Part shown: positions 11,286 to 60,283 of the stretch, one piece after another | Layout: each line of letters starts with the position of its first letter | Numbering within the stretch: position 1 is the first letter of the stretch | NCBI GenBank assembly: GCA_965243735.1 | Contig: CBDEVZ010000008.1 | Location: 1,624,302-1,688,301, forward strand | Reading direction: 5' to 3' | DNA length: 64,000 nt | From: an uncultured Candidatus Binatia bacterium | GTDB taxonomy: Bacteria; Desulfobacterota; Binatia; Bin18 | Notes under the pieces: model-generated | Databases searched by the model: none | Seen by the model: the letters and a program-made list of their open reading frames with translations, nothing else | Told to the model about the DNA's origin: nothing | Translations under genes and position numbers: made by a program

Positions 11286-11508
11286 CCAGAGCTAGGGCGT
11301 TTCACGTTAGGCTGTAGTCATGCCGTTCCGCTCTCGTTCTGCTGGCCGCGATCCGATATCCCTGCTTCGACTTCGCTCCGCTACGCTCAGCACGAACGGG
11401 AGACCGTTAGTCCTGAGCCTGTCCTGAGCCGTGTAGGTCAGGTTAGCCGGAGGCGTAACCTGACATCCCGTACGTGTCGGATTACGCTCCGCTCATCCGA
11501 CCTACTAC
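11286..11508 (+). repeat. MITE-like palindromic repeat (halves A+B) inserted at the 3' end of the preceding gene
   Basis: Half A (11286-11400) matches the reverse complement of 44700-44800. Half B (11428-11508) is near-identical to 54456-54537 and to the reverse complement of 49715-49796. B contains two 9-bp-stem hairpins: GTCAGGTTA-N10-TAACCTGAC and GTCGGATTA-N8-TAATCCGAC. Confidence 0.6.
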
Positions 11509-22456: not shown

Positions 22457-22629
22457 CGCCTTGTATGATAAGTGATCGCTGTGTCAGCCCGCTCGCGTCA
22501 TATCGGACGCGAGCCGGCATCCAGAAGCCGGGAGGCTGGGGGCGGAATGACGGGCGGCCACACAGAATCATAATTTGTTCTATTGGCAGACCCACTCCGG
22601 CCCTTTAGTCACCTCTCCCTGACGTGTGA

Positions 22630-22769
22630 CGCAAAAAGAAACCCACCCCGGCCATCTCCATCCCCTCCTCGGAGGGGTGCCGCGTGAGCGGCGGGGTGGG
22701 TTCTCTCCGGCCAGCGGCTTCTGCACGGTTGGGAAGAGTAGATGCCGGGTAAGGTGCATCACACGTCCC
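22630..22769 (+). repeat. ~140-nt structured repeat, copy 1 (second copy 46593-46731); possible small RNA or REP-like element
   Basis: GCAAAAAGAAACCCACCCCGGCC...CCCCTCC.GAGGAGGGGTGCCGCG.TAGCGGCGGGGTGGGTTCTCT...GGGTAA.GTGCATCACACGTCC is conserved between copies. Long stem CCCACCCCG/CGGGGTGGG enclosing two inner hairpins. Confidence 0.5.
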
Positions 22770-22847
22770 GAGAGGGGGATTGCTCTGTCCCCTGTCCTGA
22801 GTCCAGTCGAAGGGTGGGTTTCTTATGCGCGCCTGCACGGCCCTCTT

Positions 22848-22958: not shown

Positions 22959-23579
22959 ATGGTACGAGTCTGGTGGTTCGTTTCATGTGTTGCTACCCTG
23001 ATCCGGCCTGTCCGGCGCATGTGTCTGGCCGTCACGGTGGCGGTGCTGACTACGTTGGTCCCGCCCCCGTCCGAGGCCCAGTCCCCGGTTCTCTTTACCT
23101 CGGTCAATGAAACGCCGCCGCCCGGCCCGCTCGGCACCGAGACATTGCGCAGCCGGCTGGTGACCATGGACCTCGGGCAAGTCCAGCACGCCCGGGCTGC
23201 CGCCGCCACGGCGTCCGGCCAGCCTCCGCAGACCAGAGACACGTCCGGGCGTACAGACAAATCCAGCGCGGCGCCCGCCCCAGGTACGCTCCTGACCCTT
23301 AATCTGTTTGACGACGTGGTGGTCACGGGCGTGGTGGAGCGAACCGCGCCGACGTTTTCGGGGGGCTATTCCGTGGCGGGCCACCTGGTCGAAGAGCCGC
23401 TCGGCACCCTGACCCTGGTGGTCAACGGGGAGACGGTGGTGGGCACGGTACGGATGTTGGGGGAGACCTATCAGATCCGCTCGGTGGGAGGCGGATTGTA
23501 TACCATCAGCGAGGTGAAGGAGCACCCGCTCAACTGTGGGGTTGAGGGGCCCCATTCTGAGACGGACCATCAGCATTGA
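22959..23579 (+). CDS. Small secreted propeptide-like protein (paralog of 11749..12054) with C-terminal ...PLNCGVEGPHSETDHQH; translationally coupled to the downstream metzincin
   Basis: Signal peptide (MCLAVTVAVLTTLVPPPSEA). ~55-aa C-terminal block conserved with the first small ORF. Its stop TGA 23577-79 overlaps the TTG start 23576 of the next gene. Confidence 0.55.
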   Translation: MVRVWWFVSCVATLIRPVRRMCLAVTVAVLTTLVPPPSEAQSPVLFTSVNETPPPGPLGTETLRSRLVTMDLGQVQHARAAAATASGQPPQTRDTSGRTDKSSAAPAPGTLLTLNLFDDVVVTGVVERTAPTFSGGYSVAGHLVEEPLGTLTLVVNGETVVGTVRMLGETYQIRSVGGGLYTISEVKEHPLNCGVEGPHSETDHQH

Positions 23580-42700: not shown

Positions 42701-42801
42701 TGTCGCTGGGCTGAAAGAGAGTGACGGGTACGCGCATTGACTTCGGTCGGCCCCGCGCGCTAGGGTCGGTGCCTGTTTGCCGCCACTACCAAGGAGGACG
42801 C

Positions 42802-43347
42802 ATGGCTCGTATTCCCTATCCCAATCCTGAAGACCTGCCGGAAGAGGTCCGCGCAGCAGCCGAAAAACTCCCGCCGCTCAATATCATGAAGATGTTTCTG
42901 AACGCGCCGACGAACGCCATCCCGCTGCTCGTTTTCGGTCAGTCCATTCTGACCCAACAAGAGTTGGACGCCCATCTGCGCGAGCTGGCCATCCTGCGGG
43001 TGGCGCATCTGACCGGAGCCACCTACGAGTGGACTCAGCATGTGCCCCTGGCCAAAGAGACGGGCGTGACAGACGCCCAGGTCGCGGCCCTGCCTCAGGG
43101 AGCTGACGCGGACGCTTTTGACGAGGTGGAAAAGGGCGTGCTGCGTTTTACCGACGAGTTTACCCAGGATGCCAAAGTGTCGGCCGAGACCTTCGCCGCC
43201 CTGGAGAAACATTTGGGGCCACGGCAGATGGTCGAGCTGGCCCTGGCCGCCGGATTCTATGGCATGGTGGCGCGGGTGATGGAGTCGTTTGAGGTCGAGT
43301 TGGAGTCCACGGCCGGGACGTATTCGATGGATCAGCTTCGCCGCTGA
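42802..43347 (+). CDS. Carboxymuconolactone decarboxylase (CMD/AhpD-like) family protein
   Basis: ORF 42721.. trimmed to ATG 42802, which is preceded by AAGGAGG. Family-like sequence pattern. Confidence 0.7.
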   Translation: MARIPYPNPEDLPEEVRAAAEKLPPLNIMKMFLNAPTNAIPLLVFGQSILTQQELDAHLRELAILRVAHLTGATYEWTQHVPLAKETGVTDAQVAALPQGADADAFDEVEKGVLRFTDEFTQDAKVSAETFAALEKHLGPRQMVELALAAGFYGMVARVMESFEVELESTAGTYSMDQLRR

Positions 43348-43426
43348 ATTCAGGCCGCGAGGGAAATCCGGGGAACTTTCGGGCGCCCGAAGAAACCGGT
43401 TCGTCCCCTGTCTTGAGGGCTGCGAC

Positions 43427-44644
43427 ATGGAAGACACCCAATCAATCCGCGCTCAGATCAGCTACGAAACCGACCGCAAGGGACCGCCCGAGGGCTTTCC
43501 GCAATTCCCCGACCTGCCGGGAAAACGGTACACCGATCCCCGTTTTTACGATCTGGAAAAGCAGCAGCTGTGGCGTAAAGCGTGGCTGTTTGCCGGGCAT
43601 ATGGATGAGATTCCAGAGCCGGGCTGTTTTAAGCTGTGGGAAACGGCCGGACAACCGGTTGTCATTGTCCATGCGCGTAGCGGCGAGGTCCGGGCGTACT
43701 ACAATACCTGCCGCCACCGCGGCGCACCGCTCGTCCGCGAGGCCAGCGGGAAAGCCGACCGCTTCACCTGTGGCTATCACGGCTGGACCTATAACCATGC
43801 CGGTGAGCTGATCGGTCTGCGCGATGAGCGCGATTTTGTCGATCTCGATTTTTCGTGTCGGTCGCTGTATCCAGTCCGTATTGAGCGGCTTGGCAAGTTT
43901 CTGTTCGCCAACTTTGACCCCGACGCCCGTCCGCTGACCCAAGAGCTGGCGCCCCTGCTTCCGCAGTGGGAGCAGTTTCAGTTCGAACGCCTGCGCTTTG
44001 TTCACAAAGACTCCTTCAACCTGAACTGCAACTGGAAGATCGCCATGGAATCCAACATGGAGGTCTATCATGTCCGGTCGATTCATCCGCAGACCGTTTC
44101 ACCCATGCTGGATCATCGCGGCAATGTGAATACCCTCTACCCGGGTGGACACGGGCGCATGATTGCGCCACTCAAAGCGCACAACCATACCGAGACTGCC
44201 GCAATCGTCGATGACCGGCCGGATATTGAAACCGTGGGTGAGATCCCGCGAACCTGTATCGTGTCTTTTAATATCGTGCCCAATCTTGTCTCGCCCATGA
44301 GTGAGAAGGGGCTGCCGATTTTTGCCTTCTGGCCAACCGGCATCAACACCACACGGCTTGAGCTGTGGTGGTTTGGAGAGGATTGGGGAACTGCGCCCAA
44401 ACCGAAGAGTTGGGACACGTATATCGACTATTTCAACGGAATTGTTGCCGAAGATACGCAGTTTGGTAACGGCATTCAGCGCGGAGTCGAGTCCTACGCC
44501 TTTGGCGGGGTGCCGCTAAGCTACCAGGAAGCCCGCCTGTATCACTGGCATCAAGCTGTCGATGAGATCATCGGGATCGAGCATATTCCGCCCGAACTTC
44601 GCGTCGCGCCGGTCATTGAGCCGGGCTGGATTTCGCACGCCTAG
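43427..44644 (+). CDS. Rieske [2Fe-2S] aromatic ring-hydroxylating oxygenase alpha subunit
   Basis: Rieske motif CRHRG...CGYHGWTY (CxH-x17-CxxH) and a downstream mononuclear-iron His region. ORF 43289.. trimmed to ATG 43427. Confidence 0.8.
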   Translation: MEDTQSIRAQISYETDRKGPPEGFPQFPDLPGKRYTDPRFYDLEKQQLWRKAWLFAGHMDEIPEPGCFKLWETAGQPVVIVHARSGEVRAYYNTCRHRGAPLVREASGKADRFTCGYHGWTYNHAGELIGLRDERDFVDLDFSCRSLYPVRIERLGKFLFANFDPDARPLTQELAPLLPQWEQFQFERLRFVHKDSFNLNCNWKIAMESNMEVYHVRSIHPQTVSPMLDHRGNVNTLYPGGHGRMIAPLKAHNHTETAAIVDDRPDIETVGEIPRTCIVSFNIVPNLVSPMSEKGLPIFAFWPTGINTTRLELWWFGEDWGTAPKPKSWDTYIDYFNGIVAEDTQFGNGIQRGVESYAFGGVPLSYQEARLYHWHQAVDEIIGIEHIPPELRVAPVIEPGWISHA

Positions 44645-45733: not shown

Positions 45734-46567
45734 TTACTCCGGTTTGTTGAGGTGCATGCCGAGCAACTCATGCGCGACATGAAAGCCCAGATCCTGCACC
45801 AGCCGCTGCTTCCACTGTCGCCGCAGCACCGCACTCGTCATGCGTCGGATGGCGCGCGGCTTCTGCATGACCTTTTCGGCAATCTCCCAGGCCCGGTCCA
45901 GCAGACCGTCGAGCGGCAGCACCTCGTTGACCAGGCCCAGCTCCTTGGCCATCTGGGCGTCGATGGTGTCACTGGTGTACAGAAAGTAGGCGGCGCGTTT
46001 GAGCCCCATCAACTCCTGGAACGTCAAGCCCTGGCCGTCCCCGGGCACCAGGTTGAACTTGAAGTGCGGATCGAACAGCTCGGCGTGCTCCGCGCACAGC
46101 GTAATGTCGCACAGCAGGGCGAATTCGGTGTGTAAGCCCGAGCCGTTGATGCAGGCAATCGTGGGAATATCGATATTGAAGATGAAGGCTTCCAGCAGCT
46201 TGGTCGCGTCCGCGTAGATCTGATCGTAGAACACATCTGCGGTCATCTCGTGGAAGGGCAGCTTGGCCATTTCCGGGTCAAAGCCGGCGATCCACTTATC
46301 CCCCGTGCCGCTGAAGATCAGCACCTCGTTGTCGGGGTCGTTGCCGATGTCGATCCACAGCTGGGACCAGGCGTTGTGAATCGGCAGGCCGTAGATGACG
46401 GGCCCGCCGTCGGTGTGCATGTGCACCTGGAGGATGCCGTTGCGGCGCTCCATGTTGAAGTAGGTGGCGTATTTGTCGCGATAGTCCTCGAAGCGCGGTC
46501 GGCTCACAAAGCCCAGGCGTTGTTCCCGTTCGCGCGCATTCGGCCGTTCGTCAGTCTTCGTACTCAT
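45734..46567 (-). CDS. Enoyl-CoA hydratase/isomerase (crotonase) family protein
   Basis: Crotonase-fold pattern. Start trimmed to ATG 46567 (RBS GGAGGAG) because the listed start overlaps structured repeat copy 2. Confidence 0.8.
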   Translation of the reverse strand: MSTKTDERPNAREREQRLGFVSRPRFEDYRDKYATYFNMERRNGILQVHMHTDGGPVIYGLPIHNAWSQLWIDIGNDPDNEVLIFSGTGDKWIAGFDPEMAKLPFHEMTADVFYDQIYADATKLLEAFIFNIDIPTIACINGSGLHTEFALLCDITLCAEHAELFDPHFKFNLVPGDGQGLTFQELMGLKRAAYFLYTSDTIDAQMAKELGLVNEVLPLDGLLDRAWEIAEKVMQKPRAIRRMTSAVLRRQWKQRLVQDLGFHVAHELLGMHLNKPE

Positions 46568-46592
46568 GCGTCTCTCCTCCTTTACGTATGAT

Positions 46593-46731
46593 GCAAAAAG
46601 AAACCCACCCCGGCCTTCGGCCACCCCTCCGAGGAGGGGTGCCGCGCTAGCGGCGGGGTGGGTTCTCTGCGGCCCAGCGGCGTCTGCATAGCTGGTAGGA
46701 GCAGACTCTGGGTAACGTGCATCACACGTCC
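46593..46731 (+). repeat. ~140-nt structured repeat, copy 2
   Basis: Near-identical to 22630-22769; same nested-hairpin architecture. Confidence 0.5.
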
Positions 46732-46797
46732 TTTTTTCAGGTTCGGGCCGGTGTGGGTGCCCTGTCCCTCAGGGCGCCCTTGCGTAGCGATGCGACG

Positions 46798-48608: not shown

Positions 48609-48640
48609 ACGCCGGAACCACGCGAGAAGGTCGATTGCGC

Positions 48641-49621
48641 CTAAGCCGGCTCTACACGTTTTGTGACTGGCTGGCTGGCTTTTGCGGCTTGATACTCGTG
48701 CCGCAGCCGGCCAACCAGCTCCCGCACGACCGGCACGTCGTGGATGCAGCCGGCCGTGTGTCCGGCGCTCCAGATGTCGCGGTAGCGCCTTTTGCTGCCG
48801 GGGTCGAGGTCTTTTGCCACATCGATCATGCCCCGCTCGGGAAGGGTGTCGGGGTCGAGTCCGGCGGCCTCAATCGACTGCCGAATCATATTGGTCTCCA
48901 GGCCGCTGAAGGCTTTGGTCAGCGTGATGCCGTCCATGTTGGTGCCGACGATCATGCGCTTATAGGCTTCTGGGGCCATGCTCTCCTGGGTGGCGATAAA
49001 ACGCGTGCCCATATACGCCAGGTTACAGCCCAGCGCTTCGGCGGCGTGCAGCGCCGTGCCGTCGGCCACCCCGCCGGCCAGGACAAGCGGGCCGTCAAAG
49101 ACTTCCCGGACCTGGCGGACAAAGGCGAAGGGGTTGGCCCAGCCGGTCTGACCGCCGGCCCCTGCGGTCAGGAGGATCAGGCCGTCCGAGCCGGCGGCCA
49201 GGGCTTTTTCCACATGCCGCATGCTGGCCACGTCGGCATACACCACGCCGCCGTAGTCGTGGATGGGCTCGATGATGGCGTGCGGGCTGCCGACGCTGGC
49301 GATGACCAGCTCAATCCGGTGCTTTCTGACCAACTCCAGATCGTCCTCCAAACGTGGGTTCGAGCGGTGCACAATCAGATTCGCGCACGGTGGCGCAACC
49401 GGCTGTTCGGGGTGGGCCGCCCGAAAATCGCTCAGCCGCCGGGTAATCTGACTCAGCCAGTCGTCCAACTGCTCAACGGTTCGACAGTTGGCGGTCGGGA
49501 AGGCACCGATAACGCCGGCCTGGCAGGCCTCAATGACCAGTTCCGGGCCGGATACCAGGAACATCGGAGCGGCGATCAGGGGCAGACACAAACGGTCGTC
49601 AAACTGGGCGGGAATGGGCAC
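48641..49621 (-). CDS. Nitronate monooxygenase (NMO / 2-nitropropane dioxygenase family)
   Basis: FMN-binding TIM-barrel pattern (LIAAPMFLVSGPELVIEACQAGVIGAFP). Confidence 0.8.
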   Translation of the reverse strand: MPIPAQFDDRLCLPLIAAPMFLVSGPELVIEACQAGVIGAFPTANCRTVEQLDDWLSQITRRLSDFRAAHPEQPVAPPCANLIVHRSNPRLEDDLELVRKHRIELVIASVGSPHAIIEPIHDYGGVVYADVASMRHVEKALAAGSDGLILLTAGAGGQTGWANPFAFVRQVREVFDGPLVLAGGVADGTALHAAEALGCNLAYMGTRFIATQESMAPEAYKRMIVGTNMDGITLTKAFSGLETNMIRQSIEAAGLDPDTLPERGMIDVAKDLDPGSKRRYRDIWSAGHTAGCIHDVPVVRELVGRLRHEYQAAKASQPVTKRVEPA

Positions 49622-49693: not shown

Positions 49694-49796
49694 CGGTTCA
49701 CGATAGGCTGTCGTAGGTCGGATTAGCGGAGCGTAATCCGACACGTACGGGATGTCGGCTTACGCCTACGGCTCACCCGACCTACACGGCTACACA
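49694..49796 (-). repeat. MITE-like repeat (half B type with terminal inverted-repeat end), reverse orientation
   Basis: Reverse complement matches 54456-54558, including the terminal GCCCTATCGTGAA(G/C)CG. Confidence 0.5.
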
Positions 49797-52163: not shown

Positions 52164-53300
52164 ATGTCCACAGAACTCTCTGGCAAAGACCTCCATCTTT
52201 CGAGTCTGGCGATCATGGGGTTTCGGGGGATCGAAGACCTTTCGATCCCCCGTTTAGGCCGCGTGACGCTCTTCGTGGGGAAGAACGGAGTTGGCAAGAC
52301 GACTCTGCTTGAGGCCGTCCGTCTCTATGCTGCGCGCGGGCGTGACTCTCTTTTCGCGGATATATTGCGGAATCGTGAAGAGATGGCTGACACTGTCGAT
52401 GAGGACGGCGACAAAAAGCTCGTACTCAATTGGGAGGCTCTCTTCCATGGTCGGCACGCCTCATCAGATGCTTGTATCTCAATAGGTCCGATTATTGAGA
52501 CAGAACAGCTCTGCATTCGGACCATTCCATTAAGTGAAAAGATCGCTAAGGCATTAGGAAAGCTCACCAGCGGGCATTCCTCAGGCGAGGAGGTGAAGGT
52601 GCTCAGGGTCGAGTTTCACGGTGCGACTCAAGAATATCCGATGTCTGAATCTCCGACCGAGCAAGCATTATTACGTGAGCTGACGAAATTTTTTGATGAT
52701 GAACCCCAGCTGCTATCTGAAATCCTATGCGAGTCTCTGGGACCGAGTTTGCTGACTGATATGGACATGGCGCGGTTCTGGGATGAGATAGCGCTCACAG
52801 ATGATGAACCCCGGGTCGTGCAGGCTCTGAATCTGATCTTTGGCGATATAGTGGACCGTGTCGCGGTAGTTGGAGATGACAGGAAAAATAGTACTCCTCA
52901 TGGCCGCCGGGCGGTCGTGAAGATCAAAGGGCAAGATCGTCCGGTCCCCCTGAAAAGTCTCGGCGATGGAGCTGTGCGCCTGTTTGGTGTCGCTTTGGCT
53001 CTTGCTAACAGCCGAAATGGTCTCCTGGTTATCGACGAGGCGGAAAACGGACTCCACTATGCGGCGCAGCGCAATTTCTGGAAGATGGTTCTGAGAGCGG
53101 CGCACGAGAACAACGCGCAGGTTTTCGCAACGACACATAGCTGGGACTGTGTGGCAGGCTTTGCTCAAGCGGCAACGGATGTAGATGAGGTGGAAGGCGT
53201 TCTTGTTCGCCTTGAGAGGGACGGCAGCCGCATCCGTGCAGTAGAATACTCCGAGGACGATCTCAAAATCGCAGCCGAGCAAGGCATTGAGGTCAGATAG
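52164..53300 (+). CDS. AAA/ABC-like ATPase (AAA_21/OLD-like; RloA/AbiLi-like) of a two-gene putative defence module
   Basis: Walker A (GKNGVGKTT) at the N-terminus. C-terminal LLVIDEAENGLH (Walker B/D-loop) and FATTHS (H-loop). Lower GC than flanks. Confidence 0.7.
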   Translation: MSTELSGKDLHLSSLAIMGFRGIEDLSIPRLGRVTLFVGKNGVGKTTLLEAVRLYAARGRDSLFADILRNREEMADTVDEDGDKKLVLNWEALFHGRHASSDACISIGPIIETEQLCIRTIPLSEKIAKALGKLTSGHSSGEEVKVLRVEFHGATQEYPMSESPTEQALLRELTKFFDDEPQLLSEILCESLGPSLLTDMDMARFWDEIALTDDEPRVVQALNLIFGDIVDRVAVVGDDRKNSTPHGRRAVVKIKGQDRPVPLKSLGDGAVRLFGVALALANSRNGLLVIDEAENGLHYAAQRNFWKMVLRAAHENNAQVFATTHSWDCVAGFAQAATDVDEVEGVLVRLERDGSRIRAVEYSEDDLKIAAEQGIEVR

Positions 53301-53303
53301 TCT

Positions 53304-53921
53304 GTGGCTCAGCCTACTTCGTCACCCTCTCGTATCCTTTTAGTCGAAGGACAGAATGACAAGCACGTCGTTCTGCATCTCCGTGCCAGGCGTCCATTGA
53401 CATTGGACTTTGACGTTCGGGACACGGGAGGTATTGACCAACTGCTCCCGTCTATCGGTCCTGAAATCAAGGTTTCAGGGCGACAGGTCGTCGGTATTCT
53501 CGTGGATGCAGACGACAATATGACAGCGCGTTGGGACGCCGTCACAGATCGACTCTCGAAGGCCGGTATCTCGCCACCGCCGTCTCCCGATTCAGCCGGG
53601 ACGATCATAGACGGAACACCTCGCATTGGTATCTGGCTAATGCCGAATAATGAAGCGTCCGGCGAGCTTGAGGATTTTGTCGTGCGAATGATCCCTGGCG
53701 GGGATCAGGTTTGGCCGTTATCCCGGCGCTACATAGAAGAGATTCCAGAAACGGAGAGAAAGTTTTCAGAGAAGAAAAAGCTGAGGGCGCAGCTCTACGC
53801 CTGGCTGGCGGCTAGGGAGGACCCCAGGCAGATGGGGTTAGCCATTCGCGCGGGCGATTTGGAAGTCGATAGCGAACTCAGCCAGAAATTTATTGCCTGG
53901 CTTACGAAACTGTTCGGATAA
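53304..53921 (+). CDS. TOPRIM-like DUF4435/RloB-family protein, partner of the upstream ATPase
   Basis: LLVEGQND (conserved Glu) and ILVDADDN (DxD) TOPRIM motifs. Starts 4 nt after the ATPase stop. Confidence 0.55.
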   Translation: MAQPTSSPSRILLVEGQNDKHVVLHLRARRPLTLDFDVRDTGGIDQLLPSIGPEIKVSGRQVVGILVDADDNMTARWDAVTDRLSKAGISPPPSPDSAGTIIDGTPRIGIWLMPNNEASGELEDFVVRMIPGGDQVWPLSRRYIEEIPETERKFSEKKKLRAQLYAWLAAREDPRQMGLAIRAGDLEVDSELSQKFIAWLTKLFG

Positions 53922-54455: not shown

Positions 54456-54558
54456 GCCGTGTAGGTCAGGTTAGCCGGAGGCGTAACCTGACATCCCGTA
54501 CGTGTCGGATTACGCTCCGCTAATCCGACCTACTACGCCCTATCGTGAAGCGCACTAG
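54456..54558 (+). repeat. MITE-like repeat (half B + terminal inverted repeat)
   Basis: 54456-54537 matches 11428-11508 with 1 mismatch. Terminal GCCCTATCGTGAAGCGC is the inverted counterpart of GCGTTTCACGTTAGGC at 11288. Confidence 0.55.
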
Positions 54559-59139: not shown

Positions 59140-60283
59140 GCCCCGACTTTACCCTTTTGCGCTTGGCTTTACCAGTCAAGCGTTTCTTCGGAGGAGGGGC
59201 AGGCTGTGGCGGGGTGTTGAGCCCCGCTTTCAGCAGCTCCTCAAAGGTCAGATTGATCTTCGTTGGCATTAGCGCGTCAACTCCTCGTAAGTCAGCCGTT
59301 CCCCGATCCCGGCTTTCAGGATCGCATTGACGCGCTGGGCGCTGCTGAGCGGCAGCATGTTCCAGCGGTGCGAGAACTCAGCCAGGTAGCGGGGCAAGTG
59401 CTTCTGCGAGAAGTCGTGGAAGACGCCATGATAGCCGCGCTTGAGCAAGGCCCAGAACGACTCCACGCCGTTCGTATGGGCTTTGCCCCGGACGTACTCC
59501 CCGGCGCTGTGATTGACTGTCTCATGGGTCAGGCGGTTGAACAGGCTCGGCAGGCCGGTATAGCCGCTGTGTTCGTCCGTGTAGACGGTCGCACCCGGGT
59601 CGGTGGCACCTTCCACGAACGGAATGAGCGTGGCCCGGTCGGGCTGGTCGATCTGCCGGGCAACGGCCTGGCCGCTGGTCCGCGACACCACCCCGGCCAC
59701 GGCCATCTTGTTTGCCGTGCCCCGGCCCGGCAGCTTCTGGCTGTCATGGCGGTTCTTTTGCCGACCGCCGAAGTAGCTCTCGTCGGCTTCGACTGGCCCC
59801 GGCAACGTCCCGGCTGCGCTGCCAGCGTGCTCGGCCGCCTTGCGTAGCCGGCCCAGGACGAACCAGGCCGTCTTTTGCGTCGTGCCGATCTCCCGAGCGA
59901 GCTGGTAGCTGCTGATCCCTTTGCGGCTCGTCGTCACCAGGAAGGCCGCCAAGTACCACTTCCGCAGCGGCAAGCGGCTCTCCTCGTACACCGTGCCCTT
60001 GCGGACGCTGAACTGCTTTTTGCAGTCCCCGCACCAGTAACGCCCAGGCCGGGGCAGCCGGTTAAAGTGGCGCGTGCTCGCGCAGAGCGGGCAAATCATG
60101 CCGTTCGGCCAGCGCAAGGCGGCCAGGTGTTCGGCGCAGGCGGCTTCGTCAGGAAAGGCGTCAAGGAGGCCCAGGACATTGTTGTACCCATGATTGTTGC
60201 TCATAGGGACAGTCTACTTGATTTCTTACTGTGCGTCAAGTATATTGTTCCCTTGACAAAGGGGGATTGAGGGGAATTTACCC
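59140..60283 (-). mobile_element. IS1595-family insertion sequence
   Basis: Carries the transposase 59269..60204. Right-end inverted repeat is 60205-60283. Left end is not clearly defined, apart from a strong inverted copy at 57491-57570. Confidence 0.7.
59269..60204 (-). CDS. IS1595-family (ISXO2-like) DDE transposase with N-terminal zinc ribbon
   Basis: CPLC...CGDC zinc ribbon. ESYFGG..., DEHSGY and NGVESFWALLKR motifs typical of DDE_Tnp_IS1595. Confidence 0.9.
   Translation of the reverse strand: MSNNHGYNNVLGLLDAFPDEAACAEHLAALRWPNGMICPLCASTRHFNRLPRPGRYWCGDCKKQFSVRKGTVYEESRLPLRKWYLAAFLVTTSRKGISSYQLAREIGTTQKTAWFVLGRLRKAAEHAGSAAGTLPGPVEADESYFGGRQKNRHDSQKLPGRGTANKMAVAGVVSRTSGQAVARQIDQPDRATLIPFVEGATDPGATVYTDEHSGYTGLPSLFNRLTHETVNHSAGEYVRGKAHTNGVESFWALLKRGYHGVFHDFSQKHLPRYLAEFSHRWNMLPLSSAQRVNAILKAGIGERLTYEELTR

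Follow-up and report, generated by a model that had tools for sequence, protein, structure and literature searches.

Bacterial MITEs, such as QMITE1/2 of Coxiella and MITEAba12, are non-coding elements of about 100–300 nt with terminal inverted repeats and direct flanking repeats that arise from duplication of the target (PMC10969869). They are intergenic, their predicted transcripts form very stable stem-loops, and they occur as subfamilies, with decayed copies and with presence or absence that varies from strain to strain. The Correia elements (CREE/NEMIS) of Neisseria are similar in length (about 100–155 nt); they too have inverted termini, which pair into a long duplex, and they insert beside gene starts, where they are co-transcribed. 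RNase III cleaves the duplex in Neisseria, where an element can also affect how its neighbouring gene is expressed (PMC10969869). SPRITE-type elements are small dispersed repeats with a terminator-like core, a GC stem followed by a U-run, whose insertion may deliver a terminator. REP and REPIN sequences, associated with RAYT, are intergenic, GC-rich, palindromic and dispersed, and some copies lie in or near other hairpins. REPs are 20–40-nt units with a GTAG head and no target duplication.

The window, a stretch of 64,000 nucleotides from an uncultured Candidatus Binatia bacterium, contains two copies of a repeat that belongs with the first of these groups. The element is a new family of bacterial MITE, itself a well-known kind, and very probably not a dedicated small-RNA gene. 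Its features match the definition given in a review (PMC10969869): it has inverted termini, a target duplication, a small non-coding size, several copies and subfamilies, and both filled and empty sites. The repeats are very probably non-autonomous derivatives, about 145 nt long, of a cut-and-paste insertion sequence of the DDE type; we infer the transposase type.

Several features set this element apart from the described systems. It is GC-rich (64%, equal to the window) where the textbook MITE is AT-rich, its 12-bp termini are short, and it has so far been found only in Binatia-related genomes. Correia termini are about 26 bp long and flanked by a TA duplication, in contrast to 12 bp and a 5-bp duplication of variable sequence here; Correia elements carry promoter elements and an IHF site, neither of which is seen in this element, and there is no apparent sequence similarity between the two. 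Compared with SPRITE-type elements, the stem is branched (a three- or four-way junction) rather than a simple hairpin, the lineage and sequence are different, and the terminator-like feature occurs only in the subfamily found in the window. The element may work much as Correia and SPRITE-type elements do, but it belongs to neither type, since it has other termini, another duplication and another sequence.

Limits and termini of the two copies

An earlier note on this DNA had described a repeat at 22630–22769 and 46593–46731, with copies about 85% identical. The repeat is real and the similarity holds, with 83.6% identity by blastn and about 85% by global alignment (MAFFT). Exact blocks of 23 and 20 nt common to copies A and B are found nowhere else, the chance expectation being 0. 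The limits needed correction, since the true start lies 8–9 nt further left; copy A occupies 22622–22766 (145 nt) and copy B 46584–46729 (146 nt). The additional left sequence, ACGTGTGAYGCA, is the reverse complement of TGCATCACACGT, which had been described as a conserved 3' tail. The tail is indeed conserved, but as the right-hand terminal inverted repeat, the pairing partner of the left terminus. The element is thus bounded by 12-bp terminal inverted repeats, ACGTGTGAYGCA...TGCATCACACGT, which are exact in three Binatia copies and carry one mismatch in each window copy. Elsewhere in the window the 12-mer terminus gives only two-mismatch matches at chance level. The genomic locations were correctly described, copy A lying downstream of a DUF285/CTD gene and copy B between GST and crotonase genes. 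The features are as follows.

22622–22766, no strand assigned: copy A, 145 nt, in the spacer between the DUF285/CTD surface-protein gene (stop 22456) and a 206-aa gene (start 22959)
22617–22621, no strand assigned: left 5-bp flank of copy A, CCCTG, a degenerate target-site duplication that matches 22767–22771 at 3 of 5 positions
22622–22633, plus strand: left terminal inverted repeat of copy A, ACGTGTGACGCA, one mismatch to the family consensus ACGTGTGATGCA
22633–22700, minus strand: branched GC-rich core of copy A, CCCACCCCG at 22642–22650 pairing with CGGGGTGGG at 22692–22700, two hairpins inside
22755–22766, minus strand: right terminal inverted repeat of copy A, TGCATCACACGT, complementary to the consensus at every position
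22767–22771, no strand assigned: right 5-bp flank of copy A, CCCGA, after which comes the purine tract GAGAGGGGGA
46584–46729, no strand assigned: copy B, 146 nt, in the spacer between GST (stop 46798) and crotonase (ATG 46567), both genes on the minus strand
46565–46580, minus strand: true crotonase start, ATG at 46567–46565 with Shine-Dalgarno sequence GGAGGAG at 46580–46574
46579–46583, no strand assigned: left target-site duplication of copy B, CCTTT on the plus strand, AAAGG in operon sense
46584–46595, plus strand: left terminal inverted repeat of copy B, ACGTATGATGCA, one mismatch
46595–46662, minus strand: branched GC-rich core of copy B, stem of 46604–46612 with 46654–46662, three hairpins inside
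46718–46729, minus strand: right terminal inverted repeat of copy B, TGCATCACACGT
46730–46734, no strand assigned: right target-site duplication of copy B, CCTTT

The left flank of copy A sits within an inverted flank pair, CCTCTC...GAGAGG. Six-frame translations of the element contain no ORF that has both a start codon and homology, and family members, at 136–146 nt, are too short for a transposase gene. A 13-nt inverted match at 22812–22824 was considered as a decayed neighbouring copy and rejected, as it scored at shuffle level and could not be extended.

Empty sites, relatives and dispersed members

Copy B can be compared with relatives that lack it. The crotonase protein downstream of copy B is identical on a metagenome contig (L001) that is 93–96% identical to the window over about 6 kb. 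The GST–crotonase spacer is 88 nt in L001 versus about 230 nt in the window, and the alignment breaks precisely at both element termini. The site is empty in three relatives with the same gene order (L001, L012 and L014), whose crotonase genes are 95.4–97.4% identical to that of the window (95.4% in L012, 95.9% in L014). In L012 and L014 the empty site reads CTGAAA[AAAGG]AGGAGAGACGCATG (in short form CTGAAA[AAAGG]AGGAG); the filled site in the window reads CTGAAA[AAAGG]-146 nt-[AAAGG]AGGAGAGACGCATG. Copy B is therefore flanked by a 5-bp target-site duplication, AAAGG, verified against the empty sites, and such a duplication is the scar of staggered-cut transposition. No element was found upstream of crotonase in L001, L012, L013, L014, L015 or L016. 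One crotonase homolog, 86% identical, carries the label Candidatus Binatia, so the organism of the window probably belongs within that lineage or close to it. At the empty site, L001, L012 and L014 also contain a 10-nt sequence, TCAGCTCAGC, that is missing from the window at about 46745–46750; its loss is a small deletion about 15 nt upstream, in operon sense, of the copy B insertion point.

The insertion left the crotonase Shine-Dalgarno sequence intact, the left duplication overlapping its first GG. The element had been said to overlap the 5' end of the crotonase ORF, but this is an artefact of choosing the longest ORF. The 120 crotonase homologs listed are 275–285 aa long, nearly all of them 275–278 aa, which fits the ATG at 46567 and makes the 296-aa ORF, with its GTG at 46624 inside the element, spurious. 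The annotation of the crotonase ORF should begin at 46567, outside the repeat.

Copy A is found in a relative as well. A homolog search with the downstream 206-aa gene gave three syntenic relatives (L009, L010 and L011). In L010, which is 93.5% identical here, the element is found between the same flanks (L010:9659–9803). The ortholog matches copy A at 140/145 positions and the flanks match at 194/200 and 196/208, so that copy A evolves like neutral spacer, without extra constraint. The L009 contig begins within the right terminus of the copy A ortholog, as assemblies do at repeats. In L011 (82–85% identical) the orthologous spacer, L011:9487–10000, contains a truncated, decayed copy of the type found at L002 (E = 6.5e-7; see below) plus two inverted pieces of the core seen in the window type, with both orientations represented. 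This patchwork suggests that the spacer is a recurrent landing site, where elements have inserted more than once. Small repeats that cluster or nest in this way have been described in other bacteria (PMC10969869).

The 206-aa ORF next to copy A (window 22959–23579, also in L010 and at L011:10001–10666) is a genuine gene; it has over 300 homologs, about 190–250 aa in length, and some of them match PF27177. It overlaps the start of the next gene by 4 nt in the window, L009, L010 and L011. In L009 the contig ends within that next gene; in the window, L010 and L011 its product is about 2700 aa long.

Further members were detected by scanning one genome per species with a pattern of two termini and a variable gap. 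The matches were three elements of 136–138 nt (L002, L003 and L004), all in OZ244620.1, the complete chromosome of an uncultured Candidatus Binatia bacterium. Exact 12-bp termini of the family bound each of them, but most of the interior sequence differs, with 95% identity between L003 and L004 and with L002 as a third type. Perfect 5-bp flanking duplications occur at L002 (CAGGG) and L004 (TAAAA), imperfect ones at copy A (CCCTG/CCCGA) and L003 (TTAGG/CCAAG). Between the termini, homology is weak but real: the window type aligns to L003 and L004 over its right-hand 60 nt (nhmmer E about 0.002–0.008), and it has an 18-nt module, CCGGCCTTCGGCCACCC..., in common with L002. Five independent members were thus recovered, two in the window and three in OZ244620.1, along with the ortholog in L010 and the decayed copy in L011. 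Four metagenome matches (L005–L008) were rejected as unrelated long palindromes, which satisfy the two-termini pattern because they are palindromes. A scan of viral contigs and blastn against plasmids and phages gave no match to the element, and a literature search for MITEs in Binatia found no papers. The family is previously undescribed in this little-studied group, and the clean pair of filled and empty sites shows recent transposition.

In the proposed mechanism, a transposase acting in trans would recognise the 12-bp inverted termini (ACGTGTGATGCA) and make a 5-bp staggered cut in the target. Copy B is a recent arrival, confined to the lineage of this strain, that landed 5 bp into an A-rich/GGAGG stretch shortly before the start of the crotonase gene. 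The older copy A is found in close relatives too, and the family seems to favour sites where a GGAG-rich purine tract follows the cut. Copies A and B differ by 16%, and B was inserted after the split from relatives that are only 3–5% diverged, so B should derive from another source copy. Judged from these sequences, the family appears to have been active recently, with copy B probably descended from a source copy not seen here.

Neither an autonomous insertion sequence with the termini of the element nor a solitary consensus terminus was found in the approximately 190 kb examined. The only transposase gene in the window (59269–60204, minus strand) belongs to the IS1595 family (DDE_Tnp_IS1595 with a zinc ribbon). 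It was rejected as the partner, as its ends are unrelated and no consensus terminus lies nearby. Duplications of 5 bp are made, for example, by IS2-type members of IS3, by IS1380, ISH3 and ISAba11-type members of IS701, by some members of IS481 and IS21, and by Tn3. Since several groups of insertion sequences make such duplications, the family cannot be assigned from duplication length alone. The defined terminus (ACGTGTGATGCA, with a 5-bp duplication) does offer a handle for seeking the active insertion sequence.

Folding and alternative readings

Both copies, on both strands, fold far more stably than dinucleotide shuffles (z of −3.7 to −7.1). The structure previously described is present: CCCACCCCG pairs with CGGGGTGGG in an outer stem, inside which lie the hairpins CCCCTCC/GGAGGGG and GCCGCG/(A)GCGGC. 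On the minus strand this stem is 9 bp, all G/C, extended by A/U pairs and then followed by a U-rich run, UUUCUUUUU, at 22641–22633 in copy A. In copy B, where the minus strand is the operon sense, UUUCUUUUU lies at 46603–46595, and 15 nt separate it from the Shine-Dalgarno sequence of crotonase. A transposon of this kind is expected to give strong RNA structure as a by-product, since its inverted termini and internal GC-rich palindromes account for the folding. In OZ244620.1 the interiors fold differently, and the closing stem formed by the termini is the only common part.

Selection on the fold had been suggested on the basis of compensatory changes, and this did not hold up. The loop difference in question, ATCTCCAT versus TTCGGCCA, is a small GGCC-TTC-GGCC hairpin (46612–46622) that, between the two window copies, is present only in B; it also occurs in L002. 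Only one double-sided base-pair change separates A from B, and it is in an isolated 2-bp helix. The A/B differences fall in consensus-paired columns in 2/24 cases on the plus strand and 5/24 on the minus strand. The comparison is to some extent circular, as the consensus structure itself comes from these two sequences. This avoidance of stems could reflect selection on structure. Each of the two mutations in the termini leaves a G-U pair on the minus strand but a C-A mismatch on the plus strand (n = 2, not significant). These alignments thus hold no real covariation evidence for the element.

The reading first offered for the repeats, a possible sRNA or REP element, can be weighed against these data. 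Duplicated structured sRNA genes, or a leader or riboswitch acting in cis on the crotonase operon, in either case maintained by selection for the RNA fold, would explain the very stable folding (z down to −7.1), the avoidance of stems by A/B differences, and the position of copy B in the crotonase 5' leader with a stem and U-run before the ribosome-binding site. Such a role is nevertheless extremely improbable. Crotonase orthologs, one of them with an identical protein, are entirely without the element, and copy A has no gene downstream on that strand. A scan for sigma-70-like promoters found none in or beside either copy. The single double-sided pair change and the Binatia members, which keep the termini and not the interior fold, also count against it, as do the flanking 5-bp duplications, a transposition scar foreign to RNA genes. 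Rfam, earlier proposed as a check, gave 0 matches at the gathering threshold over the whole window; permissive scans gave only mir-602, whalefall-1 and SAM-IV, chance-level matches of 11–23 bits against thresholds of 37–100. With empty crotonase sites, no promoter-like site, no Rfam match and failed covariation, the sRNA claim is unsupported, and a false lead is removed: the repeat is very probably neither a riboswitch nor a dedicated sRNA gene. The REP designation captured a dispersed, mobile, palindromic repeat, and part of it stands. Spread by RAYT (IS200/IS605-like, tyrosine/HUH) or by some other hairpin-dependent single-strand mechanism would suit an intergenic, GC-rich, highly palindromic element, of which 3/5 insertions lie in hairpin-like flanks, in a genome that has GTAG-headed REP-like palindromes elsewhere. 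Transposition of REP/REPIN and IS200/IS605 leaves no target-site duplication, however, and three copies of this element have exact 5-bp duplications, one verified against empty sites. Its ends read ACGT... with no GTAG head, what is conserved in it is two 12-bp terminal inverted repeats rather than a subterminal hairpin, and no RAYT gene was seen in the window. Given the 12-bp termini, the 5-bp duplication, the length of 145 nt and the lack of a short GTAG-headed palindrome, the element is not a REP, and a REP/REPIN-type origin is highly improbable.

A further possibility adds to the MITE reading: the host may have co-opted the core as a terminator or insulator, or as a module for RNA processing or stability, in which case copy B would uncouple or attenuate expression of crotonase–LCM from amidohydrolase–GST. 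The minus-strand G/C stem with its U-run, in operon sense and close to the Shine-Dalgarno sequence in copy B, and stems that are invariant between A and B while loops vary, speak for co-option. Precedents exist in the terminator-like SPRITE elements and in RNase III cleavage at Correia termini (PMC10969869). The stem, however, encloses 41–43 nt of branches, is not a canonical terminator and was not called by a simple terminator scan. The U-run of copy A is directed against both neighbouring genes, the Binatia subfamilies lack the U-run, and copy A evolves like its flanks. Co-option appears unlikely, although by analogy with these precedents a role of the window-subfamily core as terminator, insulator or RNase III substrate is plausible.

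A second dispersed repeat, of the REP/REPIN type, was also observed. It is a GTAG-headed imperfect palindrome, ...TGTCGGATTACGCTCCGCTCATCCGACCTAC, with inverted partner GTAGGTCGGATTAGCGGAGCGTAATCCGACA. It is located in the window at 11458–11508, 49713–49743 and 54503–54533 (minus strand), at L001:1–51 and at L003:7022–7052. It is common to the window and the Candidatus Binatia chromosome, with up to 100% identity over 31 nt.

Target sites, expression and other features of the locus

All five copies of the MITE are intergenic. A GGAG-rich purine tract adjoins at least one end in 5/5 copies, compared with 3.5–5% of random positions, and such tracts are found at both ends, as inverted complements, in three of the five (background below 0.1%); the criterion was picked after the data had been seen. 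The reconstructed target of L002, CCCTCTCCCTCCAGGGGAGAGG, is a hairpin that is also present within L002 itself. Stand-alone CT/GA hairpins are rare, with only 5 in about 190 kb, and are suggestive as preferred targets but not established. From these sites we tentatively infer that the family prefers tracts resembling a Shine-Dalgarno sequence, or else CT/GA hairpin loops. A CT/GA hairpin, CCCTCTCCCTGAGTGAGAGGG, of the same type as the flanks of copy A and L002, is also found directly past the GST stop at L013:2875–2895 and L015:8280–8300, where the gene order is different.

The operon at copy B runs amidohydrolase–GST–crotonase–LCM. An insertion right before a ribosome-binding site, with stem and U-run in the sense direction, constitutes a natural experiment on operon expression. 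A broader proposal, that the MITE is targeted to GGAG tracts or CT/GA hairpin loops and carries a portable branched terminator or processing module, is quite unlikely. If it were true, each insertion would rewire operon structure at gene starts, and copy B would, in this strain alone, insulate crotonase–LCM from the GST transcript upstream. Small mobile elements of the MITE kind are in general familiar, which keeps the wider impact modest.

Other gene-content differences occur among the relatives of the copy B region. A PemK-toxin/antitoxin pair is located between the NMO and amidohydrolase genes in L001 (1077–1851) and L014 (829–1435); in the window this junction (48619–48684) is only about 65 nt, with no PemK pair. 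McrBC-like restriction genes are inserted between the Rieske oxygenase and CMD genes at L014:6553–9210, and these two genes abut in the window (42721–44644). On the plus strand of the window, at 52164–53921, an AAA_15/AAA_21 ATPase (378 aa) is adjacent to a DUF3226 protein (205 aa), and the pair may be a defence-type module. The region from 59 to 41519 contains seven large plus-strand genes for giant surface proteins (DUF285, cadherin or metalloprotease-like). Each of the seven finishes with a C-terminal domain of about 150 aa in duplicate, which shows in the DNA as 14 copies of a 300-nt repeat with 447-nt spacing.
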